DNA from: a virus
Strand: one strand, 5' to 3'
Length of the DNA stretch: 64,000 nucleotides
Virus record (IMG/VR): IMGVR_UViG_3300037843_000280
Location: 1-64,000 of that record
In this document: positions 403 through 45,100 of the stretch, piece after piece
Layout: each line of letters starts with the position of its first letter
Position numbering within the stretch: position 1 is the first letter of the stretch
Notes under the pieces: generated by a model
Told to the model about the DNA's origin: nothing
Database searches by the model: none
Seen by the model: the letters and a program-made list of their open reading frames with translations, nothing else
Position numbers and translations under genes: made by a program

Positions 403-546
403 CATAGCTCAACCAGCGCTCAATCCCTGACCCGCACCGGAGGACTCACGTGACATTCAACCCTGCCGGAATATTGGCGGAATCTATTGGCTGATATTGT
501 TGCCGATCTGATAATACCGCTGGCGGCGGGATTTTGCAAGTGCGGC

Positions 547-801
547 CTATTGCGTGAATGGGACGTCGCAGGCCTCGCCCTCGTCGTACTCGGAGATGAC
601 GCCGTCGCCCAGCACCATGTCAAGATGCCTCGCGCACAGGAATACCTTCTGCCCACTAGGGGCGATGATGTAGTCCACTGCCGGGTCGGGGCAGCGGTCT
701 TTTTCGTCCTGCTTAAATTCCCCGTTGACGCACGTGAACATGTCTTCTACCTCCATGCCGCCCACAGAGATGCTGACAAAGTATAGCTCGCATTGCCTCA
801 T
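547..801 (-). CDS. Small protein, member of a 3-copy paralogue family (EPAVDY ... FLCARHLD motifs)
   Basis: ORF track. It shares PAVDY(I/V)I and (W/F)(L/Y)CxxH(Y/L)D motifs with the proteins at 3812..3979 and 7706..7876. Confidence 0.5.
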   Translation of the reverse strand: MRQCELYFVSISVGGMEVEDMFTCVNGEFKQDEKDRCPDPAVDYIIAPSGQKVFLCARHLDMVLGDGVISEYDEGEACDVPFTQ

Positions 802-893: not shown

Positions 894-967
894 TGGAACC
901 CCGAACGGGACTTTTACCCGCAACCTCTCGGACTAGAGCCGAGCGCTCTGCATTGAGCTACCGGGGT
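894..967 (-). tRNA. Amber suppressor tRNA, anticodon CUA (74 nt)
   Basis: Reverse complement accccggta-gctc-aatgca-gagc-g-ctcgg-ctCTAgt-ccgag-aggtt-gcggg-taaaagt-cccgt-tcggggt-t-cca. Perfect 5-bp anticodon stem, U33, anticodon CUA, G37. D-loop and T-loop are atypical. Confidence 0.65.
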
Positions 968-969
968 GC

Positions 970-1045
970 TGGCAATCCGGGCGGGCATCGAACCCGCATC
1001 TCAGGTTTTAGGGACCCGGCTCTAGCCACGTTGAGCTACCGGACT
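970..1045 (-). tRNA. tRNA, probable anticodon CUA (76 nt)
   Basis: Standard acceptor and D-arm with T-loop ttcgatg. The only foldable anticodon stem (cgggt/acctg, one GU pair) gives loop ccCTAaa, with C33 and the residue at position 26 missing. Confidence 0.45.
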
Positions 1046-1068
1046 GTATTGTGACTGATACTGGAGGC

Positions 1069-1144
1069 TGGTGCGCCCGGTCGGATTCGGACCGACGATC
1101 CCTGATTTAGAGGCAGGAGCTTTAGCCCACTAAGCTACGGGCGC
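1069..1144 (-). tRNA. tRNA, anticodon CUA (76 nt)
   Basis: Perfect acceptor gcgcccg/cgggcgc, D-stem gctt/aagc and T-arm gtcgg-tccgaat-ccgac. Anticodon stem cctgc/tcagg has a C-U mismatch at 31-39. Loop ctCTAaa has U33 and A37. Confidence 0.55.
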
Positions 1145-1165
1145 ATGTCCTTAGTATACAGTCTG

Positions 1166-1849
1166 TCAAACATTTTCGTCCATTTCCTCGAACTGCTTTT
1201 TCAGCTTGAGATACAACTCCTTGTCGCGTTCCGCATTCGCCTTCTTTTTCTTCTTAGCGGCTTCCGCTGCCTTTTCCGCCTTTTCCTTGGCTTCCTTCTG
1301 CTTCGCCTCGAAGTAGCGGTCGAGGCGCTTCTGTACTTCCCTCGCAATCGCATCGTCGAGCGCGTCGTCCTCAAGCCCGAGCAGGTACGACGGGAAGCTT
1401 TGCTCGTATGTCACGTACTCTGGGTGGCAGTGGCAGGCGTCGTTGTACTCGTACGAGAGTGTGAACTGGCTCTCGTCGAACGACTCCAGCTTTTCGAAGC
1501 TCCCGTGCGTTCGGATTCCGGGAAGGTTCGCGATCTTGAGCCGCTGAAGCTCCCTTCCGAGGGCTTGGTTATATTGGTCCGCGACCGCGAACGTCTGCTG
1601 GTGAATCCACTCGTATGTCTCTGCCGCTTCCTTAACGTCCTATGTCATCTCAGTTCTCCTTTGTCTTAGTTTTTGGACTTCCTCGATCAGGCTGCGTATG
1701 AATGAGCACAATTCGGGGTTGTCCGTTCCTCCGTAGTATTCCCCGTCCACGTAGAACTTGTCCTGGTTGCAATGCCCGGAACAATGGCAGGGAACATGCT
1801 CCCAGCCGTACTTGGTGCCGTCAATCTCGATCTCCAGCATTGTCATCAT
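1166..1849 (-). CDS. Amber-interrupted early gene: one frame from about 1849 (or ATG 1840) to TAA at 1166, with a single in-frame TAG at 1640..1642; ~227-aa readthrough product with duplicated CHC motifs
   Basis: ORF-track entries 1640..1849 and 1166..1414 are in the same frame. Own translation of the 75 codons after the TAG (DVKEAAETYEWIHQQTFAVADQYNQALGREL...NDACHCHPEYV) shows no stop and no ATG/GTG/TTG start. Both halves carry CHC motifs. Confidence 0.6.
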
Positions 1850-2114
1850 CCTCGGCGCAGTAGCCGCAGTGCGGGCACGTGACGCCGTATAGAATTCCCC
1901 AACAGAACTGCTTGCCGCACTTTTCGCAGCACAGAACGTGAGAGCCGGGGTTTAAGCTCCCGCAGCAGCAAACTCTTTTCGCGCCGTCCACAAACTCCGC
2001 TTTCGGGCAGCGAGCACAGAATCTCCGGCATTTCCATTCGTCAGTCGCAGGCAGCCAATGGCCCCATTCGTGGAGACCTAACAGGCATTTGACTGCGCTC
2101 ATCAATTCGCTCAT
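1821..2114 (-). CDS. Cys-rich zinc-finger-like small protein (97 aa)
   Basis: ORF track trimmed to internal start MSELMSAVK, which overlaps the upstream stop as ATGA. Contains CxxC and CCC clusters. Confidence 0.5.
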   Translation of the reverse strand: MSELMSAVKCLLGLHEWGHWLPATDEWKCRRFCARCPKAEFVDGAKRVCCCGSLNPGSHVLCCEKCGKQFCWGILYGVTCPHCGYCAEDDDNAGDRD

Positions 2115-2296
2115 GAGACGTCTCCCTCGGGGTCGCCCTTCCTGCGGATGCCCCAGCCGCCGCGCCAATACACATCTAAGGTGTCGTCCCACATCGCCTC
2201 GCGACGGTCGTTCCAACTGGGCCAGACCTCGTATTCCTTCCCGCCGATCCCGAGGAAACCGCCCGTCTTCTCCTTCTTTGGCGGCAGGTCCTTCAC
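2111..2296 (-). CDS. Hypothetical small protein (61 aa), GTG start overlapping upstream TGA
   Basis: ORF track. The in-frame upstream sequence is Arg-rich junk back to a TAA. Confidence 0.4.
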   Translation of the reverse strand: MKDLPPKKEKTGGFLGIGGKEYEVWPSWNDRREAMWDDTLDVYWRGGWGIRRKGDPEGDVS

Positions 2297-2778: not shown

Positions 2779-3227
2779 TGCACTGCTCCTTCGTATTTAG
2801 ACTTTAGTTCGAGGTAGCGCTGGCGCTCGGCTTCCTCCGCCTCACGCTGCTCCTCGGCTTCCTTTGCTGACACACGCTCAAGGCGCTTGCGCTCGTGCTC
2901 GTCGTACGCCTTTTTCTGCGCTTCGATCCAGTCGTCGATGTTGTCGAGCCAGTCGTAGGGGATGACGATGGATAGGTAGTCGTATTCGCCACCGCCGCAA
3001 TACTTGCGACCCCTGAGAGTGATACTGTTTTCCCCGAACTCGTAGCCGTCGTCGTCGGATGCCCTAAACTCGTAGCCAGTGCGTGGAACCCACTTGGGTT
3101 CGTGGTCTTCGTAGATTTCCTCCCGCAGAAGTCCGGCGTTTTGGGCTTTCGCGAAGGCTTCCCGCATGATCTCGTGGAACTGCCCCTGCAACTGCTGAAG
3201 CTGCTTGCCCATCTCCCTAATCATCAT
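2775..3227 (-). CDS. Hypothetical protein (150 aa), charged C-terminal helix
   Basis: ORF track with ATGATGA overlap to its neighbour. Confidence 0.55.
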   Translation of the reverse strand: MMIREMGKQLQQLQGQFHEIMREAFAKAQNAGLLREEIYEDHEPKWVPRTGYEFRASDDDGYEFGENSITLRGRKYCGGGEYDYLSIVIPYDWLDNIDDWIEAQKKAYDEHERKRLERVSAKEAEEQREAEEAERQRYLELKSKYEGAVQ

Positions 3228-3628
3228 TGTAGCTCTCCTATCAAGACAGAATTTGCTTGCGTTGGCACTACAGGATTTGCTTGCGTTGGCTCAGGTTCCC
3301 GCCAGAGGCGGTAATTCGATAATATTTGACGCTGGTGCTGTTCGAGCGGGACGGTGGCCACGGCGGACAGGCCCATGTTGAAGTCCGGCTCGTAGAACAC
3401 CTGATGACCGATGTCCTTGGAACGGAGCTTCTCGATGGCGCGGAAGAGCGCCTGCTTGTCGGGTACGCCGATGACTATGCACGACGGGATTTCGTCTATG
3501 TCTAGGTCTTGGGGTTGCAAACGGCGGGCAACTTCGAAGGTCGCGTGGTTGGACTGAACGACCTGTTGTGCGAGGGGGATGTCTGTCCTTACGAAAACGT
3601 AAAAATAGGGGTGCTGAACCTATGCCAT
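3224..3628 (-). CDS. Amber-gated early gene: AGGAGG-N9-ATG GCA TAG followed by a 131-codon open frame (TAG at 3620..3622)
   Basis: Own minus-strand translation: ...AGGAGGctcaaaaacc ATG GCA TAG GTT CAG CAC... runs into ORF-track 3224..3520. The track start is a TTG with no RBS. There is no other start between the TAG and that TTG. Confidence 0.55.
3251..3290 (-). repeat. Tandem 16-nt repeat atttgcttgcgttggc x2 (period 24) inside the 3' end of the amber-gated gene; encodes PTQANxV x2
   Basis: Seen directly in the sequence. Confidence 0.6.
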
Positions 3629-3811
3629 GGTTTTTGAGCCTCCTAGCTCAATACTGCTATACGGTCTGAAAGTTCGAAAAGTATGGAGAACAGCCAGTGC
3701 CGATCCCGGCCCGAAGACCAATTGCTCTGTCCTCAGTCCAGTTGGCTTTCACCAACCCCTCCGGCTTGCCCTCCAATATCAAGCATATTGTCTCACGAAA
3801 TTTCCGGCCTG

Positions 3812-3979
3812 TCAAGGTCTATCTTCCGTCAGGGAACGACATAGCACCGCGTCGTAGTGCTCGGTGCAGAGCCACACTTGGTTGAACTTGATGGGGGCGG
3901 GTTCGTCGCAAAAGATCGGGTCGCCGTCTTCGCCCGGCTCCGTGTGGAAGTCCACGATATATTGGCAGCTATGCGCCAT
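3812..3979 (-). CDS. Small protein (55 aa), paralogue family member (DEPAPIKFNQVWLCTEHYD)
   Basis: ORF track trimmed to ATG 3979 (MAHSCQY). Motifs shared with 547..801 and 7706..7876. Confidence 0.45.
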   Translation of the reverse strand: MAHSCQYIVDFHTEPGEDGDPIFCDEPAPIKFNQVWLCTEHYDAVLCRSLTEDRP

Positions 3980-4193
3980 CTTGTTTCTTACACGTCGCAT
4001 CCATAATTTCGGGCGGCAAGTACATTGCACATTTGTGGGTTTCTAGGCAACGCCTGCACGTGTAACGTTTTAGGCCGCAATAGCCCGTTGGGTTGTGGTA
4101 GCAATCCTCAGTGATCCAGTCATGTTTTCGTAGTACAGTCCTGTTCCCGAAACGCCGAACGCCGTGGCGCTTTCCGATGTTGGTTTTAGCCAT
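3969..4193 (-). CDS. Hypothetical basic small protein (74 aa); ends in TAG
   Basis: ORF track. ATG overlaps the upstream TAA. Confidence 0.45.
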   Translation of the reverse strand: MAKTNIGKRHGVRRFGNRTVLRKHDWITEDCYHNPTGYCGLKRYTCRRCLETHKCAMYLPPEIMDATCKKQDGA

Positions 4194-4671: not shown

Positions 4672-4699
4672 AGAAACAAAAAACCCCGCTTGCGCGGGG
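4672..4699 (-). terminator. Rho-independent terminator on the minus strand (ccccgc-gcaa-gcgggg followed by TTTTTGTTT)
   Basis: Hairpin plus T-tract seen in the sequence, ~70 nt upstream of the 4199..4606 start. Confidence 0.55.
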
Positions 4700-4897
4700 T
4701 CGTCTGTCGTGTTGAGGTTCGTTCCCACGGGGAACGTGCAGGCCGTTTTTCAGGCGGCTGCTGCAAAAGCCATTGCCTTTGGGGCAGTGACGTTTATGGT
4801 TTTGCTCATTTACGGAAGTTTGCTCTCCGGCTCGCGTGCAACTCTCATCGACCAAATGTCGAAACCAGTTCACCCACATGGTTTTGTGGGGAAATGA

Positions 4898-4929
4898 TGG
4901 TGTAGGTGGGGGGATTTGAACCCCCGTCC
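4898..4929 (-). other. Orphan tRNA/tmRNA-like 3' fragment: GGAC-GGGGGTTCAAATCCCCC-CACCTAC-A-CCA, with no 5' acceptor partner
   Basis: T-arm, 3' acceptor strand and CCA seen in the reverse complement. The 3' end resembles tmRNA termini, but a CDS occupies where the tmRNA body would lie. Confidence 0.4.
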
Positions 4930-5021
4930 ATCTGGCGACCTAAGCACCCAACTCCCCTTGCGGGGTTGTTACGAGCGTGTACATATATTACTTGAAAAGC
5001 CAGAAATGTCAAGTGATTGTT

Positions 5022-6392
5022 TCAGGGTTTGCGGCGATAAGCACTTTGGAACTTGCGCTCTTCCTTGATCATGTCCCGCACTTCATCGTAAACCTGGCCC
5101 TTTGGGTCTAGGCCGAGTTCCTCGATCCACGCGGCCAGCTTCTTGCGGCGGTAGGTGTCCGCCCTGGTCGCGGCAGTCGGGCGCAGACCGGGAAACTGCC
5201 TGTGGGGTTCCCAAGGCGGCTCCCCCTTTTCCCGGCGCTGCTGTTCGAACGACTTGTCGCTGAAGAACCCCTCTGGCAGGTCCTCGTCCGTGATCTCGAC
5301 GGGTTTCTCCTCGGCGGTCTTCGAGCCGCCCTCCAGAAGCTCGATCTCGTTCTCAAGCTCAATCCTGCGAAGTTTCGGGTTCTGCCACTCGTTGAGATAA
5401 CCCTCATCTTGTACCAGCGCGAACGCGATCTGCCGCGCCCGCTCGCGGTATATGGGCGGCACCGGGGAACCGTGGGTCACGAGGAATACGATGACGCCGA
5501 GATAGTGCTGGTCGTCATCTGCGCCTGTAGGTTCCATATCAAGCTCATCCAGCAAGGTCTGAAGCTCGCTGTCTGGCACAGGCTCGTCGAAGCCCTCTCC
5601 CTCGTCGCCCTTCGGGCGGTGGCTGTCGAGAATGTCGTGCACTTGGTCGCTGTCGTAGGAGCGGTCGCCCCACTGCCCGGCGAACTTGCCCTGGCTCCGC
5701 GCCGCCCACGCCGACTCCTGCTCGACGCTGGCGACGTACTTCGACGGGTGCAGTTCGCGCTCGCCCTTGACCTGCCTCGGGTCGTGCGTCTCCGCCCACA
5801 TCGCCCACAAGCCCTTCCGCGCCCTGATCTGGTCGGCAAACTCCGCCTTGACGATCTCCTCGGCGACGTGCATCTCCGGCTCGGTCGGAAACTGGAACAC
5901 GGAGAACTCGTCCTCCTCGTAGTGCGTGACGTCGAAGTCCTTCATCCCGGCCTTGGCGAGGTGGAACGCCACGGGACCGGCGGCCTTTGTGGGCACCGTG
6001 AAGCTGAAGCGCGGCGGCTTGCCGGCCAGCTTTTTTGCGGTGCGCCAGCGCCCCACTATACCTATGCCGACAGACCTCAGGAACTCGTCGTCTTTCCTCT
6101 TCGCTTCCTCAGGGCTTAGCTGGGGCGGCTCCTCTTCCTTCGGCTCGACGATGCTCTTCAGGGTCTCGGCGTCGGTCCACTTGGCGCTGCGGGTACCGTC
6201 CTCGGTGACGACCTGGTAGTACGGCTCCTCGGTGTCCCTGTCCACGTCGATCTTGACCTTGACGCCGCTGCGCGGGCTGCGCCACACCTCTTCCGTCGCG
6301 CCGGATGGGTGGAAGCCGTTGGCGTTTAGAATCTCGCGCCAGTCGTCGTCCGGGAACTTGCCCATGTCGCCCTTCTTCAGCAGGTCTGCCAT
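5022..6392 (-). CDS. Hypothetical acidic protein (456 aa)
   Basis: ORF track. GAGGG RBS. TGA stop. No recognisable motif. Confidence 0.6.
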   Translation of the reverse strand: MADLLKKGDMGKFPDDDWREILNANGFHPSGATEEVWRSPRSGVKVKIDVDRDTEEPYYQVVTEDGTRSAKWTDAETLKSIVEPKEEEPPQLSPEEAKRKDDEFLRSVGIGIVGRWRTAKKLAGKPPRFSFTVPTKAAGPVAFHLAKAGMKDFDVTHYEEDEFSVFQFPTEPEMHVAEEIVKAEFADQIRARKGLWAMWAETHDPRQVKGERELHPSKYVASVEQESAWAARSQGKFAGQWGDRSYDSDQVHDILDSHRPKGDEGEGFDEPVPDSELQTLLDELDMEPTGADDDQHYLGVIVFLVTHGSPVPPIYRERARQIAFALVQDEGYLNEWQNPKLRRIELENEIELLEGGSKTAEEKPVEITDEDLPEGFFSDKSFEQQRREKGEPPWEPHRQFPGLRPTAATRADTYRRKKLAAWIEELGLDPKGQVYDEVRDMIKEERKFQSAYRRKP

Positions 6393-17800: not shown

Positions 17801-19977
17801 CCGAGGAGGTCGAACTGCTCATTGATAAGGTTCTGCGTATTCTGCGGCGACAGACCGTAGGCGCGTGCGATCTGCTGCTTGTACGGGCTGGACTGGAACG
17901 GGTCTGACAGACCGTTACCGCTTGCATTGTCAACCTGCGAGATGGCCGAGATCGAAGTGGACACGCGTGCGAACCATTCTCGAACGGACATGTTCGCGGC
18001 TTCGATGGAAAACGGGTCGATGAAGATGTCGCGAATCTCGGAGCGCGGCGACAGGTCGAGGTTCGGAAGCTGCTTGTTGATCTGCGCGATGAGGCGTCCC
18101 GCGATGTCTTCCTTGCGTTGGAGCACCGGGAAGTCGGTCGGATTTGCAACCTGAAGGTTGACGTAACCACAAAGCAGCGGACCATTCTCGACAGACTCAT
18201 ACACAATGTTTGTAGTCGGGTCTTGGATAACCGTCGAAAACATCGCGTAAAACGTGGTTGCATTGATAGTGGAGAACGGGATGTCTACCGTGCTATAGTT
18301 CGTCAGCATCGAGGTGTTCGCCGTCGATGTCGTGCTGGTCGAGATGACGCTGGTGGCTATGCCATTGTCTCCGATGGAAGCGAACCCGATGTCGCTAGGG
18401 TTGCTGTAGTTCGCGTGTGTGAAAGCTGCCGTGAAGTAGAACGGACTGGCTGTCGCCACGACCAAGACCTGGCCGTTCAGGAAAGGCTCGGCAGTGCCGC
18501 TGATGACGACCTGTTGACCGATGGTATAGCTGTTTGTCGCTGTCACCGTGAGGATGTTACCCGAGACTTGAGTCGCGGTGATCGAGTTACCATAATTTTC
18601 GGCAGTAAACAGCGACGTAAACCCGGACGGGGTCGCTGCCAGGATTGTCAAGCTCTCGCCGTTCAGGAAAGTCGCGTTGACTAGGCTTTCGACATTCACC
18701 ACCATGCCAGGAACGAAGCTATTCCGCGCTGTGATGGTAGCGAGGTTGTTTGCAAGCACAACATTCGAGATGATCGCAGTCGGCACGTTGACCGATGTGT
18801 TCGAGGACGACGTGATGACCGTCTCGGCAGAACTGGAGATCGCGGTCACGAGGTCTCCATACTGCGTGAACGGCGGGTTCACGCCAGCCGAGTCGGTGGA
18901 AATCTGCACCCTGACGCCGATGAAACCTGGATAGTCCGGGGTCACCCATTGCAGAGTGCAGTTACTTTGGTCTTTCAGCGCGGAGATGCCGGACGGCGGT
19001 GCGATGGCGACCGAGAGATTGCTCTGCGCGAACAGCAGAGAGAATCTGATCGTGGGGGTTACCGCCTGCGACCCGATGTTAGCCCACACAAGCTGGTTGT
19101 CCAGCGTGGCCGCCTGCACCGTTCCCGAATCGGAAGCGGCGGCATAGTTCGCCTGGGTGATCGGAGCGGTGAATTCTGTCGGGTCTGCGAAAGACACCGT
19201 GACGACCTGACCGTTCAGGAACGAGGCGTTGACGAAGCCCGTGAGATACACGGACTGTCCCGTGGAAAAACTATTGGCGCAATTTACCGTGAGGAGATTG
19301 CCCGATATGCTGACGCTCGTGCCGACAGTCGGCGACAGCCTGCTCCACCTGGGCTGCGGCACCGCGCTGCCCGTGTCCGCGCTGTTCGTGTAGTTGTTGG
19401 CAACGAGCGTCGCCGTAAAGCCAATTTGGTTCCCGCCTGAGGTGATAAGTGCAGCTACCAGCACAGTCTGACCGTTGAGCGCGGCTTCAGCCGTTCCCGT
19501 AAGGACAACCGGCTGCCCCACGGCAAAAGTGTTGGAGCACGTCACGGTGAGGACGTTGCCGACGACAGACGTGGCTGTGATCACCGACCCCGTCGAAGAG
19601 GACGTCCCAGACCCGGTGGATTGCACCACGACTTCCACGTTGCCGTTCGGGTCGGCGAACCTCTCGCTCATAGAATAGTTGGTGCCCGGCTCCCACATGG
19701 ATGCTGGGTCATAATTGCGTCCGATGATCGTGACATTGGTCTCCAGCACCGAGGGGGCCAGCGGAATGGACTGGGCAAATTGATTGTTGGCTCCGACGAG
19801 CGAGAACGTGTCGATGGCGTAGGAAGTGTTGTAGATTCCCACCTCGACTCGGGTCGTGTTCGTGTCGGCGTTGACCACGAGGGGTAGGACGGACGAGTCA
19901 ATAGAAATCACGCTCGTTCCGGTCGGCAGAACCGGGATCACCAGTTGAAGGGGCGTTAATGTTGACGATGGTGCCAT
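14875..19977 (-). CDS. Giant fibre-like structural protein (1700 aa), S/T/N/V-rich with at least 5 FLNGQ repeats
   Basis: ORF track. Contains repeats LTGTAEAALNGQTVLVA..., FLNGQVVTVS..., FLNGESLTI..., PFLNGQVLVVA... and ILNGQTVVIG... TAATG overlap to its neighbour. Confidence 0.65.
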   Translation of the reverse strand: MAPSSTLTPLQLVIPVLPTGTSVISIDSSVLPLVVNADTNTTRVEVGIYNTSYAIDTFSLVGANNQFAQSIPLAPSVLETNVTIIGRNYDPASMWEPGTNYSMSERFADPNGNVEVVVQSTGSGTSSSTGSVITATSVVGNVLTVTCSNTFAVGQPVVLTGTAEAALNGQTVLVAALITSGGNQIGFTATLVANNYTNSADTGSAVPQPRWSRLSPTVGTSVSISGNLLTVNCANSFSTGQSVYLTGFVNASFLNGQVVTVSFADPTEFTAPITQANYAAASDSGTVQAATLDNQLVWANIGSQAVTPTIRFSLLFAQSNLSVAIAPPSGISALKDQSNCTLQWVTPDYPGFIGVRVQISTDSAGVNPPFTQYGDLVTAISSSAETVITSSSNTSVNVPTAIISNVVLANNLATITARNSFVPGMVVNVESLVNATFLNGESLTILAATPSGFTSLFTAENYGNSITATQVSGNILTVTATNSYTIGQQVVISGTAEPFLNGQVLVVATASPFYFTAAFTHANYSNPSDIGFASIGDNGIATSVISTSTTSTANTSMLTNYSTVDIPFSTINATTFYAMFSTVIQDPTTNIVYESVENGPLLCGYVNLQVANPTDFPVLQRKEDIAGRLIAQINKQLPNLDLSPRSEIRDIFIDPFSIEAANMSVREWFARVSTSISAISQVDNASGNGLSDPFQSSPYKQQIARAYGLSPQNTQNLINEQFDLLGEGAGLTRLGSEQATVVLTFYTYQQPTSSITIPEGATVSTVPDSATSALVFTTQGQGTINIANLASFFNSNAGWWGVSVPAQCTQPGSVGNVGAGTIRQTVSGVPSGINVTNLVGAQFGQDQESNSAFAARIQARKFTGNDSSSANGYLVTALSTPGVISAQVVAAGDLYMLRDWDPTRLKHVFGAVDIYARGTTFSQQDEFVPFSYANNGVYGTTNTYSTLAYIGSNTFQIANYNTLAFPPYDGVELFVSRSSNSFYLSLDRAQFNVTTGQIILNNGDIAYQYVGNSVTQAKVPLLLNGVPATNQAALAALSGASTGTYSFALFMRLASPFLHVPALQPVLQVYSVTGSATESGVLPSSDVTLIHTSDFLLYGGSNDAGDIVQVLLTSAPTQSTVTIGPLTAPTLIDIGMNQPLGPNGVPLNVLSVRSLDLSTLYQFGTDYSIVAYGPYREYGIQPLTSSVTLTQLQIVNNVLTVTVPNDFGVGATVQLSGIVDPTFASILNGQTVVIGTASPTQFTATFHFANTGPTLTSGVVTGSAIQAGQQVIVSYNEYVLYERLSFVSGESQVLSGTLPTTLDNDGFVQNTWLPQSYSTGVFNSSQANTSNLPAVPPFSFNPLALILDGWNGNFGNDGGLDVVGSATFDPSGLVGNQIPYASRYIKVVYYNGVSNVVMKENIDFTLTVDPVSGSATLARILTGRIPDGGTVSVSYFVTETFTVSTQYPTFVELLANTIAQTKSAAADVLIKAEIANDVDITMTVTLDANANAATVDPVIRTAINVVLDNSSTTLYQSELVSQVQAITGVQSVELPLIKCAKSNGSYDIGIVIPTGTVWTQTNTSNNAWISTNSVLPDSTIPTGGEPTAIVDLLYQGQVFRRATSLLDFQTNSPAVPHLAVAPGVVNASPGSFYIYGTDDPVNSGKVALTIPLDVPTPAQLSFFVTYQVFNEGGAKDVTVSPTEYLAPGTITINYVSNPTS

Positions 19978-38758: not shown

Positions 38759-38782
38759 GAAGACAGTTTACTAGAATTTTGA

Positions 38783-39448
38783 CTAGCTGTCAAGTACAAG
38801 GTCTTCCGTGGTTTCGTCTTCTGGTGCGCCGTGCATCGTAACCTTGCCGAGTAGGCGGCGGTTGTAGGACAGCTTCGAGAGTTGGTACACGCCTTTGGAC
38901 ACGAGCAAACGTGGATTGAAGAACATGTGAAGGCGGGTATCAATATCGGCGATTAGCGGATCGGGGACGAAGATGTTGATCCAAAAGCCATGGGATTCCT
39001 CACCATCGCTCTTGCCGATTTGCAAGTAAGGGATGAGTTCTGGCGTGCCAGCAGCAGTGAGTTGCTTGATAGCTTGTGCCTCGTAAGATGGGTTGCAGCC
39101 GATTTTCATGGTACCCCTATCGGCGCAGATGGCGTCTAGGGCCTCGACTAATTCGGGTTCGACGGGGAGTATGTCGGCGAAGTCGCCGTCATGAAGCTTG
39201 GGGTCGTAGCGGGAATACTTACTCGCCTCGTAGGCTTCCTCAGTGACGAGTTGACGCTTGATGACACTGAGCGACTTGCCATTCACTGTGATAAAATTCT
39301 TGCTGGTTTCCGGAATGAGCTTCGACTCTTCGCCAAAATTGATGGAAAACAGCCCGGGCTTGGCGCACTGACGCTCAACCGTGCCGATGCCGAATTCGTC
39401 GTGGTCTACAGTATCGCCAACCTTGAGTTTGATCTGATGTCTAACCAT
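38783..39448 (-). CDS. Hypothetical protein (221 aa); TAG stop backed up by TAG and TAA within 5 codons
   Basis: ORF track. Confidence 0.5.
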   Translation of the reverse strand: MVRHQIKLKVGDTVDHDEFGIGTVERQCAKPGLFSINFGEESKLIPETSKNFITVNGKSLSVIKRQLVTEEAYEASKYSRYDPKLHDGDFADILPVEPELVEALDAICADRGTMKIGCNPSYEAQAIKQLTAAGTPELIPYLQIGKSDGEESHGFWINIFVPDPLIADIDTRLHMFFNPRLLVSKGVYQLSKLSYNRRLLGKVTMHGAPEDETTEDLVLDS

Positions 39449-39580
39449 ACCCTAGTATACAGCGGGGGCCTCGCGTTTGTCCACCCGCTTGAAAATATTT
39501 CCCACGACAGATGTACTTTTTACATAACGACAAATAAATAAGTAACTTACGGCAGGAATCATCGACATAGTGATGTGGCT

Positions 39581-40108
39581 CTACAGCCCGCCGTTGTCGG
39601 GGTAGACCAATCCTGCGCGGTGTAACCAGTTCTTCAGGTAAGGGGCGTCTCCGGGGTTGTTCGCGACGACCTCGCGGTCCCAGTTGGCGCGGGCGGTGCG
39701 CAGTTGCGAGGCGAGTGTTGGCTGGTCCGACTTGTCGATCAGGCTCAACGTGGTGGGACCGATCACGCCGTCCGCCGTGACGCCGAGCAACGCTTGGAGC
39801 ACTTTGACCGCACGCGAGCAGCCGGAGTTGATCCCAAAGTCCATCATCACGCTGGCCAGCCCGTCGTCGTTCACGAAGTCCAGGTGGAGCGGGTGCCAGT
39901 ATTCGCTGCCGTAAATTTGCACTGCCTCGGCGAGCGCCGTGGTGGTGTCGCAGGTGTAGAAGTCCGCAGGTATCTCGGGGTGGGCGTTGCTCGCTATCCC
40001 GAAGCGCGTCCTGCCCCCGATGTCGCCGGGCAGGGTCGTGACCTTGCCGGAAAGCGTGGAGTCCTCGAAGCGGATGACCCACTGGATGATGCCGTTCTTG
40101 TTTGCCAT
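39581..40108 (-). CDS. Endolysin: GH108 lysozyme-like domain plus PG_binding_3 (175 aa)
   Basis: GGRTRFGI and ALLGVTADGVIGPTTL motifs. Confidence 0.65.
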   Translation of the reverse strand: MANKNGIIQWVIRFEDSTLSGKVTTLPGDIGGRTRFGIASNAHPEIPADFYTCDTTTALAEAVQIYGSEYWHPLHLDFVNDDGLASVMMDFGINSGCSRAVKVLQALLGVTADGVIGPTTLSLIDKSDQPTLASQLRTARANWDREVVANNPGDAPYLKNWLHRAGLVYPDNGGL

Positions 40109-40143
40109 TTCAAACCCTCGCTAAAGGGCTTGAAATTAGGGTT

Positions 40144-41705: not shown

Positions 41706-41767
41706 TTTTCAACAGGTTAAAACCAGACAAAACGGGCTGGCAGCCTGTATACTGTTGGCGGAGGAAG
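41706..41767 (+). promoter_or_regulatory. Copy A of the 62-nt promoter/operator/RBS cassette: -35 CAGACA (41724..41729), near-palindrome GGCTGGCAGCC, -10 TG-TATACT (41748..41753), GGAGGAAG RBS
   Basis: 59 of 62 nt identical to the copy at 57450..57511. Confidence 0.6.
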
Positions 41768-41773
41768 ACAACA

Positions 41774-42145
41774 ATGAAAACTTTTCTGGCAACGCTTGCG
41801 GCAATCCTGTGTTCCGTCGCCGTGCTGATCCTCGCGCAGGTTTTGTACGTCAGATACGTGGACTACACCCAAGCGCAGGAGCATGAACAGTGGTCGCAGC
41901 AGGAATCGGACAAGCTAGACCAGGCCATCAAAAAGAACGTGGTCGAAAACTGGAACTACAAAGCCTGCGCCGAGCTTCTGGGAACGAGGGACAAGGACGG
42001 GCTTGGATACCCCATGGAGGGCGACAACCTTCAATGGTTCCAAGACCACACCCACGAACTGACGCCCGTCACCGGCGTCACCTACTTCGGTGGCGGGATG
42101 AGCGACAGGGACATGGCTGCTTGCCGAGATAGAGCACGAGAGTAA
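41774..42145 (+). CDS. Small single-pass membrane protein (123 aa) driven by cassette A; possible holin/spanin-like or exclusion protein
   Basis: ORF track. N-terminal TM segment TFLATLAAILCSVAVLILAQVLYV. Confidence 0.55.
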   Translation: MKTFLATLAAILCSVAVLILAQVLYVRYVDYTQAQEHEQWSQQESDKLDQAIKKNVVENWNYKACAELLGTRDKDGLGYPMEGDNLQWFQDHTHELTPVTGVTYFGGGMSDRDMAACRDRARE

Positions 42146-42194
42146 GAGAAGCAGGATTGACCGCAAGGCACTAAGCGCGGCAATGCGCAAAAAC

Positions 42195-45100
42195 TTAAAT
42201 CATCGACGAGAAGCGCGTCGGGACATGCGGCTCGTAGACGAACGTCACCGTTTGGGTGATCGCATCGTAAGCAACGACGCGACCGATGCAGATGACCCAG
42301 CCGACTGGGCCGAACGGGGGACTTCCGGTCCCGGTCGTCAGCGAGGTGTAGTCCTGCGTCAGCCTGCCGTCCATGCCGACGTACAGCAAGCCTCCCACCA
42401 TGATCTGGTCGGCGGCGGTGACGGGAGACAGGAAATACTGCTCGCCGTAATACGATGTAACCTTCACCGATTGCCCCTGTGTGCCGGAAGTCAGCATAAC
42501 ACCGTCGGGGTTTGGCGCGAGAACAGCACCGGACGAGTCGATGGCGTAAAGGACGGACGAGGGCGGGACCTCCGCCGTAGGCCCGTAGTTCGCGTGGCCG
42601 GGAAAGCTGAAGGTGACAGAGGTCGGAGTTGCCGCCGTAGTGGTCACGACCTGACCGTTCAGGAACGACGCGTTCTGCAAGCCGGAAAAAGTGACGAGTT
42701 CGCCGCCGCCAGTTTGGAAGTGGTTTAGCGTCGTCGTGATCATGAAATTGCTCGATGCGTCGCTCTGCACGTTACTGATGGTCGGCACGATGGGGTCGAG
42801 CGGCGTGGCGTGTCCGTTGGCGTCGATGCTGACAGCCGTGAGCGCGGGGACGGGCGGGGCGAACCAGAACGGCACGTCCAAATTATAGTTCCTCGTGTTG
42901 CCTTGCGTGATCACCGTGTTGCCGCCGGGCGGGGACGTCACCTGCGACAGGATCATGCTGAACGTGCTACCTGGCTCGATGTCCGCCGTGCCGCCCGCCA
43001 GGTTGGTGGAGGCGAGCACCTCCACTCTGTCGCCCGCGCTGAATAGCTGGTTGAATGTGATGTTGGTCGTGGTCGCCCCGGCAGCCGCAGTGACGCTGGA
43101 CGCGGTCGCGATGGCTGTGCCGTTCTGCGTCACCGTGATCGTGTACGTCCCGGCGGACGGGACGTCCCACGCGAACGTGCCGATGCCGTTGTATGTCCCG
43201 GCAGCCTGGATGGTGAACAGGCCCGGCTGCAATGTGGTGACGTTCCCCGTGTAGTCGAAGTCCTGCGGAAGTTGAAGCACATCGAAGTTGACCTGCGCGT
43301 TGGTGCCGGGTGGCACCGGGGTCAGGGTCGTGTACACCGAGACGTGGAACCCGATCTGCTGCGTGGCTTGGAGCAGGGCGTTCGCGGTTGCCAATCCCTG
43401 CGCGATGGACGCCTGCATATTGCTCTTCCACACGTTGATCCCGGCGTAGCTGAGGTTCGTGCGGAGCATCGCGATCTGGACGGGAATCGGCTGCGCCTGG
43501 ATGTCCGGGCGGGAGAGGAACGCGACCGGGTTGAAGTCCATGTTGTTGATCCAGCCGTTGTCGTTGACGTTGGGGCTGAAGCCGCTGGGCGGGATCGTGA
43601 TCGGCTCCACGGGGATCGTCGGCAACGGCGTGCCGGGCGTCCACGTGCGGCTGCGCGACGCCACATCCAGGAGAAGCGAATTGTACGCGGTCGGGTCTCC
43701 CAAGGGGTTGACCGCGCCGTTGAAAATCTCCGGGTATGTCGCGGCTTGCTGCACGAGGTAAGGGTCTTGCGCAAGAAACACCGATAGGTTCGTCGCAAAG
43801 TCCCTCCAGAACTGGCTGAAGCGGTCAACCTGCGTCGCCTGCGCGAATTGATTGTACGTGAAACGGTTCGCGAGGCGCGGGGACAGGTAGGCAGTGTCGG
43901 CTTGGATGTCTGCCGAAGCAAGCTCGATGACGACGTTCATGGCGTTTTGGAACGACGTCGGGAACGTGATCGGCATGGGGAATTCCGCCGTACCTACGCC
44001 TAGCGTTAAGGTGGTGACCGACGTCGAGATCGCCGTCGATTGGTAGTCGAGGTCTGACCCGGTCGGCCCGGACAGGTACGTGTTGTCCTGGTACGAGTCC
44101 CACTGCGGGTTGCGCGTGTAGCCGAGCAGGGAAGCCTCGACGTAGGAAAGTTGCCACAGCAGGTGGTTAAGCTGGTTCGGTGTGAGGCTGGCGAATGTCT
44201 GGAGCAGCGGAATCTGCGGGACGTTCGAATAGATCGTATTCGCCGGGGCGGTTTCCCACACGGTCGCGTCCGTGCCGGGGACAACGTCCGTGTTAGCGGC
44301 GAGGGCAAGCCAGGTGCCGCCGCTGTACGTAACCACGTCGTTGGCGGCGTAGGTGGTGGTGGTGTTCCACGTACTCATCCATAGGAAATTTGTCAAGCCG
44401 AGGACGTCGTTCCACGGCACCGAAAGGGTCGTTACGGTGCTGACTGAGGGCTGGATGTAGTTTGTGTAAGCCGTCTGGAAATTCGGAATCCACACGCCGC
44501 CTCTGCCTTGGCGGTCGAGATTAAGATAGATCAGCCAAGCAGCGGTGAGCAGCGGGTCGAAGTTGGACGCGGCGATGTTTCCAAGGTTCACGAAGTGGAT
44601 CAGGTCCTTGCGAAGCTGGAGGTCGCGGAGCGCGTAGTTCGGGTTGCTGTAATCCGGGTCGCCGACGAAGACCGTATTGCCGCGCAGCGCCGGGACGATG
44701 CTCACGATGAAGTTGTCGAACACGTTCGCCGAAAGCTGCCAGTTTGAGATGACATAATGCGGGTCGGGCATCGCGCCCCACATGTTTTGGAGCGGGTTGA
44801 ATGCTGGTGTAGCCACCGATGGCGACATAGTCTGAAACACGGGATCGGCCGTGTTTGCCTGCATCGAGGCGATGAAGGCGGCGTTGGTCTGGTCTTGGCT
44901 CGGACTCACTACGCTCCCGCTGAACGGCGGTGTGAAGTAGCTCGCAGAGCCGAATGTCAGACCGCTGTAACTCGTTACGGACAGTGGGTCCGTGGTGAAT
45001 ATGCTCGACGATGACGATGTGCTCGGCGATGTGGGGCCAAGTGAACATTGGCTAAATGTGAAGTTGAAGTTGAATGACGTGTTCGACTTGAGTGCGGAGA

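Follow-up and report, generated by a model that had tools for sequence, protein, structure and literature searches.

What does a lone in-frame stop codon mean when the frame continues, open and protein-like, on its far side? The question is raised by a stretch of viral DNA of 64,000 nucleotides (nt), positions 1 to 64,000 of the IMG/VR virus record IMGVR_UViG_3300037843_000280 (hereafter, the window), whose minus strand holds a reading frame that runs from 1951 to a TGA at 1168..1166 and is open apart from a single TAG at 1642..1640. The original prediction, made from the letters of this DNA, was that an early gene is interrupted here and that one protein of ~227 amino acids (aa) is produced only when a suppressor tRNA is active. 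Our analysis retains the suppressor and revises the gene: the frame past TAG appears to belong to an independent gene with TAG as its third codon, here termed gene B (1648..1166), rather than to one protein broken mid-way. The TAG is probably an ‘amber gate’ on gene B, i.e., a suppressor-tRNA-dependent translational switch, with the genetic code itself left unchanged. The window has a G+C content of 58% and is nearly all novel, with few open reading frames (ORFs) that match a known family, including an SLT lytic tail protein, a DnaB-like helicase, and a GH108 endolysin.

The sequence around the stop, ...CAA AGG AGA ACT GAG ATG ACA TAG GAC GTT AAG GAA..., contains an in-frame ATG (1648..1646) two codons ahead of TAG, which the original prediction overlooked, and a Shine–Dalgarno (SD) element, AAGGAGA (1655..1661), 6 nt 5′ of this ATG. 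Read from here, gene B has 160 codons, ATG (1648), ACA, TAG (1642..1640), and 157 sense codons, followed by the TGA at 1168..1166; all features of this locus lie on the minus strand. The gate codon is followed by G, a purine, and doubles as the stop of the preceding frame, ORF-A. As had been claimed, the 75 codons past TAG contain no ATG, GTG, or TTG. The earliest is a GTG 76 codons on (1412..1414), from which gene callers start an 82-aa ORF and which is probably an internal Val codon; in contigs L001, L002, and L004, metagenome gene callers give two ORFs, of 66 and 82 aa, separated by a 225-nt gap. When trained on the long ORFs of the window, a codon-usage score is positive in the gene B frame over 1415..1600 (+2 to +9 per 30 codons) and amounts to +10.3 across the 40 codons after TAG; no other coding-strand TAG in the 64-kb window is flanked on both sides by long open frames and positive scores. 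The pattern GGAG-N3-12-ATGNNNTAG occurs three times in the window against 0.57 expected; two of the three copies are followed by a long conserved ORF without a nearby start, and the third (18357..18372) lies out of frame within a 1700-aa gene.

The stop codon itself is real. Using a neighboring protein as query, we recovered contigs from other samples (L001/L012, JGI 3300018019; L002, ENA ERZ27249776; L004, SRR13021902; L005, SRR12951267; and also L011; JGI, ENA, and Logan assemblies), and the TAG-bearing region is present in all of them, i.e., in 4–5 independent metagenome assemblies. The lone difference across 800 nt is a GAG to TAG change in L004, equivalent to window 1684..1682 within ORF-A, which creates another in-frame amber codon there. 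The same TAG in contigs from separate samples is thus not an assembly error.

Comparison with related phages, which had been suggested as a check, returns TAG at the same site and not a sense codon. A tblastn search found a gene B homologue in one other lineage (L015 = L016 = L022), with 72% identity over 152 aa and no gene call. Its DNA reads GAGGAGGAAGACA ATG ACA TAG AGC GTT AAG GAA GCG GCA GAG..., so that the start ATG ACA TAG is identical in the window and in all three contigs, and its SD element, GAGGAGGA, lies 5 nt 5′ of the ATG. The first codon past TAG is GAC in the window and AGC in L015. Between the two, codons 3–78 comprise 47 identical, 11 synonymous, and 17 non-synonymous codons plus a 3-codon in-frame indel, and the substitution pattern in the 75 post-TAG codons is the same as in the remainder of the gene; together with the positive codon score, this bears out the claim that the DNA past TAG is protein-coding. 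In L015, GTG 1414 is replaced by GCG (Ala), and protein conservation extends 5′ of that codon. The ORF ahead of gene B in L015 bears no relation to ORF-A; it occupies a different frame and terminates with TAA. Since ATG-ACA-TAG is kept behind an unrelated upstream ORF, the conserved unit is the 160-codon gene starting M-T-[UAG]. Gene B has no match in Pfam, PHROG, NCBIfam, or PDB. It is predicted to have an N-terminal helix, a beta hairpin around CHCH, and a long Lys/Glu-rich C-terminal helix, in a low-confidence model (predicted local distance difference test, pLDDT, 55).

The original prediction of one functional fusion, in which ORF-A and the downstream ORF form a protein of ~224–227 aa with TAG mid-gene, is unlikely when seen against this comparison. 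A and B do share a frame with only TAG between them, a CHC motif and a similarly spaced EVQK stretch are found in each, and, with TAG suppressed, ribosomes on A must continue into B. On the other hand, gene B has its own SD element and ATG and is independent of ORF-A in L015. ORF-A (1640..1840; 66 aa, MLEIEIDG...TEMT) is lineage-specific, terminates at the gate TAG, and has no homologue in the 5.8-billion-protein search, IMG/VR, the metagenome scan, tblastn, or the relatives’ loci. Its codon score is weak and is poor over the last ~13 codons, as expected for sequence serving as the ribosome-binding site of gene B rather than as a linker. The fused A–B protein matched nothing in Pfam, PHROGs, INPHARED (by tblastn), the 5.8-billion-protein search, or IMG/VR; the metagenome scan returned identical copies only, and a scan of genome contigs together with a degenerate DNA pattern for CHCHPEY gave no new lineage. 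The CHC repeat pointed out in the original prediction does stand in both halves, but we rejected it as evidence of internal duplication, as BLASTP of A against B gives E = 0.63, which is not significant.

The start of ORF-A also argues against the fusion. It reads gccGAGGAtgatgaca ATG CTG GAG ATC and is homologous to the gated leaders of another gene in the relatives L023 (gccGAGGAggaagaca ATG CTG TAG ACC) and L013 (ATG CTA TAG ATC), a likeness that covers the SD element, the ATG, and two codons and then stops. By this homology, ORF-A is a remnant of such a leader in which TAG became GAG and which was joined to new sequence, and the gene B of L015 uses that leader junction directly. It is thus as if there were a cassette slot adjoining the tRNA genes, with the gated leader as its conserved 5′ end. 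As ORF-A ends at the gate TAG, in this phage only, suppression should also yield some A–B fusion; a 224-aa product may therefore form here, as a by-product and not a conserved unit. There are two GAG/TAG correspondences at this locus, the L004 polymorphism (1684..1682) and the third codon of ORF-A, GAG here and TAG in relatives. They hint, though too weakly to assign an amino acid, at possible reading of UAG as Glu or at tolerance of TAG at this locus.

If gene B is read from its own ATG, UAG has to be decoded, and three phage tRNA genes with anticodon CUA lie directly downstream, at 1144..894 (all detected by ARAGORN): (i) sup1 (1069..1144; Rfam tRNA score 60.2 bits), which begins 22 nt past the gene B stop, has CCA encoded and carries A73; (ii) sup2 (970..1045; 44.2 bits), with A1-U72, G73, and a Trp/Gln-like acceptor end; and (iii) sup3 (894..967; 54.1 bits), with U73 and an unusual T-loop, GUAAAAG. 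A −10-like box, TATACT (1153..1158), is found 8 nt 5′ of sup1 here and also 5′ of sup1 in L015, as a consensus match only. Orthologues of sup1 are present in L013, L015, and L020, and sup2 and sup3 are 88% and 97% identical to their L013 counterparts. The three tRNAs constitute three orthologous families, are not close to the phage’s own Gln, Glu, or Lys tRNAs, and lack G3:U70. With no canonical start in the 75 codons downstream of TAG, translation of gene B most plausibly needs these adjacent genes, in keeping with the suppressor dependence that had been proposed.

Some peculiarities of these tRNAs deserve mention in their own right. In sup3, as well as in its counterparts in L013 (2395..2469) and L015 (12415..12488), an abnormal T-loop, GGGUAAAAGUCCC, is conserved in place of GGUUCGAAUCC, the D-loop lacks the usual GG, and the discriminator is U73, so the tRNA elbow seems altered. 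We rejected pyrrolysine decoding: the ‘tRNA-Pyl’ label given by ARAGORN reflects the CUA anticodon only, and each of the three scores well against the general tRNA model (44–60 bits), with ordinary cloverleaf arms. No family related to pyrrolysine was found among the window proteins scanned, a scan that covered only part of the window ORFs.

Is gene B alone in this arrangement? We scanned the window for an SD element, a start codon, a few codons, TAG, and then a long ORF, and found exactly one further case, 2 kb upstream of gene B. This gene (3224..3628, minus strand) weakly resembles peptidyl-tRNA hydrolase 2 (PTH2) and has the SD element AGGAGG (3644..3639), ATG (3628) GCA TAG (3622..3620) GTT..., and a TGA at 3226..3224; its start reads AGGAGG-N10-ATG GCA TAG GTT CAG CAC CCC TAT TTT TAC GTT TTC GTA AGG ACA GAC... 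(3644..3620 from the SD element through TAG). The protein encoded past TAG (VQHPYFYVFVRTDIPLAQQVVQSNHA...) has 71 homologues in a large protein collection. The next canonical start is a TTG at 3520, 34 codons on and within the conserved domain, and the conserved block opens at FVR(Q/T)D, more than 20 codons 5′ of that TTG. A conserved block upstream of the first canonical start means that translation begins upstream, where the only start is ATG-GCA-TAG. Thus, gene B and the PTH2-like gene both carry an in-frame TAG within conserved coding sequence that lacks a canonical downstream start.

The leader of the PTH2-like gene is kept among relatives, with a variable codon between ATG and TAG: ATG GCA TAG GTT in L013, where a two-codon in-frame indel lies right past TAG, ATG CAA TAG GTT in L015, ATG GCG TAG GTT in L018/L019, ATG ATG TAG GTT in L020, and ATG CAT TAG GTG in L021. 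Scanning IMG/VR extended the set to 25 PTH2-like loci, from jumbo-phage contigs of up to 463 kb. Nearly all have a leader of 1–12 codons, terminated by TAG, just ahead of the conserved block, in ~20 uncultured lineages; examples, each followed by TAG, are MQ, ML, MH, MT, MSQH, MSNEH, MKLQLEGL, MRKAIGDL, and MRKIDEGNITGL. None of the leaders examined ends in TAA or TGA. The base after the gate TAG is a purine in all ~27 distinct cases examined, and the next codon is mostly not a start, GTT being the commonest, with GTA, GTC, ATC, ATT, GAT, GAC, and AGC also found. Gated loci have 1–3 tRNA(CUA) genes at a distance of 0.01–3.5 kb, or up to 3.7 kb with the cultured phages counted in. One lineage (L033–L036) has an ordinary start (MTHIYIFVRQD) and no tRNA(CUA) in the locus.

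Two further observations concern the DNA ahead of the PTH2-like gene. In L037 (~5940..5985) and L021 (~500..540), the gated gene has no SD element, and only 4 nt separate the ATG from the end of a promoter-like element, TTGACA-N18-TATGCT/TATCCT, as would be expected of a leaderless mRNA whose first codon is the AUG of AUG-NNN-UAG. Just 5′ of the SD element in the window (3650..3665, minus strand), the motif GCAGTATTGAG is conserved in L013, L015, L018, L023, and L025, perhaps as the −10 region of a promoter or as a site of regulation.

The gate is not confined to uncultured phages. A tblastn search of GenBank phages with the PTH2-like protein matched 37 records, mostly jumbo phages, and a TAG at the homologous position is found in at least nine cultured lineages in addition to the ~20 uncultured ones. 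The GenBank records have no coding sequence (CDS) for this gene in Serratia phage BF (MTH-TAG-NDKTWIYVFVRTD), Yersinia phage fHe-Yen9-04 (MSH-TAG-IDKTW...), and Ralstonia phage RsoM2USA (ML-TAG-ISDKTY...). The CDS is truncated in Pectobacterium phage CBB and Cronobacter phage GAP32 (both MAQ-TAG-NEKTW...) and begins inside the match in Xanthomonas phage XbC2 (MAH-TAG-NEKTW...) and Tenacibaculum phage pT24 (MK-TAG-ITKNS...). Acinetobacter phage ME3 (MT-TAG-IHENKKHTYVFVRRD) has a tRNA annotated as ‘anticodon CTA’ 450 nt upstream. Salmonella phage Arash (ML-TAG-NKHWIYTFVRYD) has a 50-aa ‘peptidyl-tRNA hydrolase’ fragment and, 1 kb downstream, a tRNA(CUA) labeled tRNA-Phe. The start-proximal TAG accounts for the annotation gaps in these cultured jumbo-phage records (L049, L051, L053, L054, L057, and L060). 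In CBB, a tRNA with anticodon CTA lies 3.7 kb downstream, and a canonical PTH2, CBB_392, exists besides the gated CBB_406. In RaK2, the PTH2-like gene has an ordinary ATG start.

A third gated family occupies the position of gene B in relatives. The gene just 5′ of the suppressor tRNAs in L013, L018/L019, L020, L023, and L032 encodes a ~190-aa protein with no Pfam match, putatively an HD protein on account of an H...HDxGK motif seen by eye. It starts with ATG-(CTA/CTG/TTG/ACA)-TAG, and conservation (xNLxKLExP) covers the residues that lie between TAG and the ATG annotated as the start. In Xanthomonas phage XacN1 (L055/L061, ORF364) and Stenotrophomonas phage RAS14 (L058), the PTH2-like domain and this ~190-aa protein form one in-frame fusion, and the fused ORF364 of XacN1 is preceded by AGAGGA-N8-ATG AAG TAG, in frame, four codons ahead of the annotated ATG. 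The occurrence of the two as separate gated genes in the window’s clade and as a fusion in XacN1 and RAS14 suggests joint action.

Could the ribosome pass the TAG with no suppressor at all? ATG-NNN-TAG might be a two-codon upstream mini-ORF, after which the main ORF is translated by termination and reinitiation at the next codon, the tRNA(CUA) genes serving otherwise. Two-codon minigenes with a strong SD element are known in phage lambda (the bar minigenes), and GTN and ATH, near-cognate to starts, are frequent as the codon past TAG, which is GTG in the PTH2-like gene of L021 and ATG in the HD-like gene of L020. We nonetheless consider this explanation quite improbable. A mini-ORF could take any stop, whereas the stop used in each of the leaders examined is TAG, the codon that pairs with the CUA anticodon. 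The next codon in gene B, GAC in the window and AGC in L015, is not start-like, and GTT, the commonest next codon overall, is no recognized bacterial initiator. The gate co-occurs with tRNA(CUA), both being missing in L033–L036, and leaders of 4–12 codons are conserved as peptide (MRKAIGDL and MRKAIVGDL, each before TAG).

A recent nonsense mutation, a pseudogene or an assembly error, or a locus in which only the 82-aa ORF from GTG 1414 is real and 225 nt are non-coding, would fit the gene calls and the empty protein searches with the fused sequence but is very improbable, given that the TAG is identical in five assemblies from different samples and kept in a lineage just 72% identical in protein, that the ‘gap’ has a positive codon score and shows conservation at the protein level, its changes including synonymous ones and an in-frame indel, and that GTG 1414 is not conserved.

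The amber gate, which we favor, can be rationalized into three steps. (i) Initiation: ribosomes would bind AAGGAGA, start at ATG 1648, and meet UAG after fMet-Thr. (ii) Closed gate: with host machinery only, release factor 1 would terminate translation, or the dipeptidyl-tRNA would drop off, and no B protein would be made. (iii) Open gate: once the phage tRNAs with anticodon CUA have been transcribed, perhaps from a promoter of their own (the TATACT box 5′ of sup1), and charged, they would compete with release factor 1, and UAG would be read as an amino acid to give a 160-residue protein. Gated proteins would then appear only after suppressor tRNA has accumulated, and the same gate would operate on the PTH2-like gene (3628..3224) and, in related phages, on the ~190-aa putative HD-motif gene. 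A gate at the very start would waste just a dipeptide when closed, with no truncated protein, and would place the inserted residue outside the conserved domain, which may be why three tRNAs with different acceptor ends (A73, G73, and U73) can all serve.

Several points weigh against the gate. Expression and charging of the tRNAs, and their role in decoding UAG, are inferred from the genes and not from their products. The conservation of gene B comes from a single comparison with one independent homologous lineage. The loci L037–L039 are gated, yet no tRNA(CUA) lies within the 12 kb fetched, and the joint absence of gate and tRNA(CUA) in L033–L036 is one evolutionary event, not a statistic. The canonical starts found directly past TAG in a few genes also fit reinitiation. 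Matches of the PTH2-like family to the PTH2 Pfam model (PF01981) are weak, being seen for 14 of 31 members with a best E of 0.004, below the Pfam threshold. Finally, suppression would also extend phage genes that end in TAG, a cost that the model leaves unexplained.

As for purpose, we infer conditional or timed expression; the gate could set timing, check the suppressor system, or provide feedback on tRNA handling via the PTH2-like and HD-like proteins. More tentatively, and with less likelihood than its absence, the UAG gate, tRNA(CUA), and the PTH2-like and HD-like proteins may be parts of one ancient jumbo-phage circuit, in which functional suppressor tRNAs of the phage, or successful competition against release factor 1, would be required before tRNA-handling enzymes are made. 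Such a circuit would be a translational sensor, or a feedback loop, on the state of the host translation apparatus; it would account for the ‘orphan’ amber suppressors found in standard-code jumbo phages, and the same gate would be available to cassette genes, gene B among them.

In the rest of the window, TAG is an ordinary stop. The endolysin (39581..40108, minus strand), with GH108 and a complete PG_binding_3, ends in TAG (39583..39581), as do three further ORFs, and no internal TAG is found in the large minus-strand ORFs, which reach 1806 aa. As TAG still terminates genes and the large ORFs have none inside, with only two gated genes in 64 kb, this is not a genome of the recoded ‘code 15’ type, in which TAG is unused as a terminator and lies in frame in many genes, and the switch is gene-specific. 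Two other candidates for genes with in-frame TAG were rejected: the run 38768..40135, with several TAGs, is the endolysin properly ended at TAG followed by a separate gene, and the frame at 41717..42199 looks non-coding. Past the endolysin TAG, 42 more open codons lead to a second TAG at 39454 and include a hydrophobic stretch, MSMIPAVSYLFICRYV (39454..39583, minus strand). Active suppressor tRNAs would thus lengthen the endolysin at its C-terminus by a segment that may act on membranes.

The neighborhood contains further translation-related elements. A permuted, two-piece transfer-messenger RNA (tmRNA; 4750..4952, minus strand; Rfam RF04321, 91.5 bits) is present here and in most relatives, where a tag of the ...APKAMAxAAAA type is likewise conserved; near it lie a promoter-like TTGACA-16-TAATAT (5012..4985) and a strong terminator-like hairpin (4701..4682). 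No more than a few kb from the suppressor tRNAs, relatives encode a protein of 260–284 aa similar to alanyl-tRNA synthetase (tRNA-synt_2c; L015 12976..13830, L018 15931..16716, L020 14706..15554), a ribosomal L7/L12-like protein (L018 12559..12969), cold-shock proteins, and arrays of Ile, Thr, and Gln tRNAs. The surroundings of the suppressor tRNAs in relatives are a dense translation-related island. Small Cys-rich ORFs flank the locus on the minus strand. Two of them, at 547..801 and 3812..4030, look paralogous (FLCARHLDMVL/WLCTEHYDAVL). A third, at 1821..2216, is CxxC-rich and ends in ...CPHCGYCAEDDDN, is conserved in L013 and L023, and supplies the SD element of the next gene with its 3′ end. 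The label ‘early gene’ given in the original prediction is not established, as promoter and terminator scans gave consensus matches only.

How does the gate relate to known systems? The lambda bar minigenes (SD-AUG-AUA-UAA) promote drop-off of peptidyl-tRNA, the substrate of peptidyl-tRNA hydrolase. Like them, the gate has a strong SD element, a start, one sense codon, and a stop, and one gated gene is PTH2-like; unlike the gate, bar minigenes use UAA, have no conserved in-frame ORF behind them, and are not associated with a suppressor tRNA. The gated leaders are thus not minigenes of this type, as the frame runs on into conserved protein sequence. C-terminal readthrough of the Q-beta A1 type is formally matched by ORF-A plus B in this phage, but A is without homologues, and B has its own SD element and ATG and is independent in L015.

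Recoding of stop codons is well described in phages with ‘code 15’, where TAG is read as an amino acid and where a delay of late and lysis genes has been ascribed, as a proposal, to suppressor tRNAs (Borges et al., bioRxiv 10.1101/2021.08.26.457843; Peters et al. 2022, PMC9523058). As in those phages, a phage tRNA(CUA) would be needed for an in-frame TAG, making expression conditional on a phage product. Unlike code 15, TAG stands here at codons 2–13 of two or three small genes by the tRNA cluster and is not scattered over structural and lysis genes; it stays a normal stop in the window, the large genes have none inside, and G+C stands at 58%. Start-proximal stop codons find no mention in the preprint of Borges et al. 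or in two jumbo-phage surveys searched.

Jumbo phages of groups 2 and 3 encode an archaeo-eukaryotic-type PTH2 (Iyer et al. 2021, PMC7824862), a paper that does not mention an amber codon at the start of a PTH2-like gene. The gated family appears to be a divergent paralogue of this enzyme, and CBB has both. Phage XacN1 is of the same broad group and has both tRNA(CUA) and a counterpart of the gated gene. For this phage, Yoshikawa et al. (2018, PMC5852040) reported two tRNA(CUA) genes per terminal repeat and revealed no targets by reading through 18 amber stops; ORF364, behind ATG AAG TAG, is now a candidate target. A conserved start-proximal amber gate that offers targets for orphan tRNAs is apparently undescribed.

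Why does the gate matter? Amber-suppressor tRNAs are found in many standard-code jumbo phages, and targets have so far been lacking. The gate points to a concrete and conserved target class, namely genes with TAG as the second to thirteenth codon, which gene callers miss or truncate. Cultured carriers with tractable hosts (Pectobacterium, Acinetobacter, Salmonella, and Xanthomonas) make the idea directly testable. If true, phage annotation pipelines must allow stop codons right past the start, and the gate might be an intermediate toward full stop-codon reassignment. The gate also has a synthetic likeness: an engineered amber codon combined with an inducible suppressor tRNA, used as a leak dampener in E. 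coli containing release factor 1, in which one amber codon gave a ~3-fold reduction of leak with 40–69% signal retention (Ho et al., PMC7969014). In both, an amber codon in the target and a suppressor tRNA would add a second, translational layer of control. Unlike that device, the gate is natural, is conserved in many phage lineages, and sits at the codon directly past the start; if our reading is right, it is the natural counterpart of engineered amber-codon switches.

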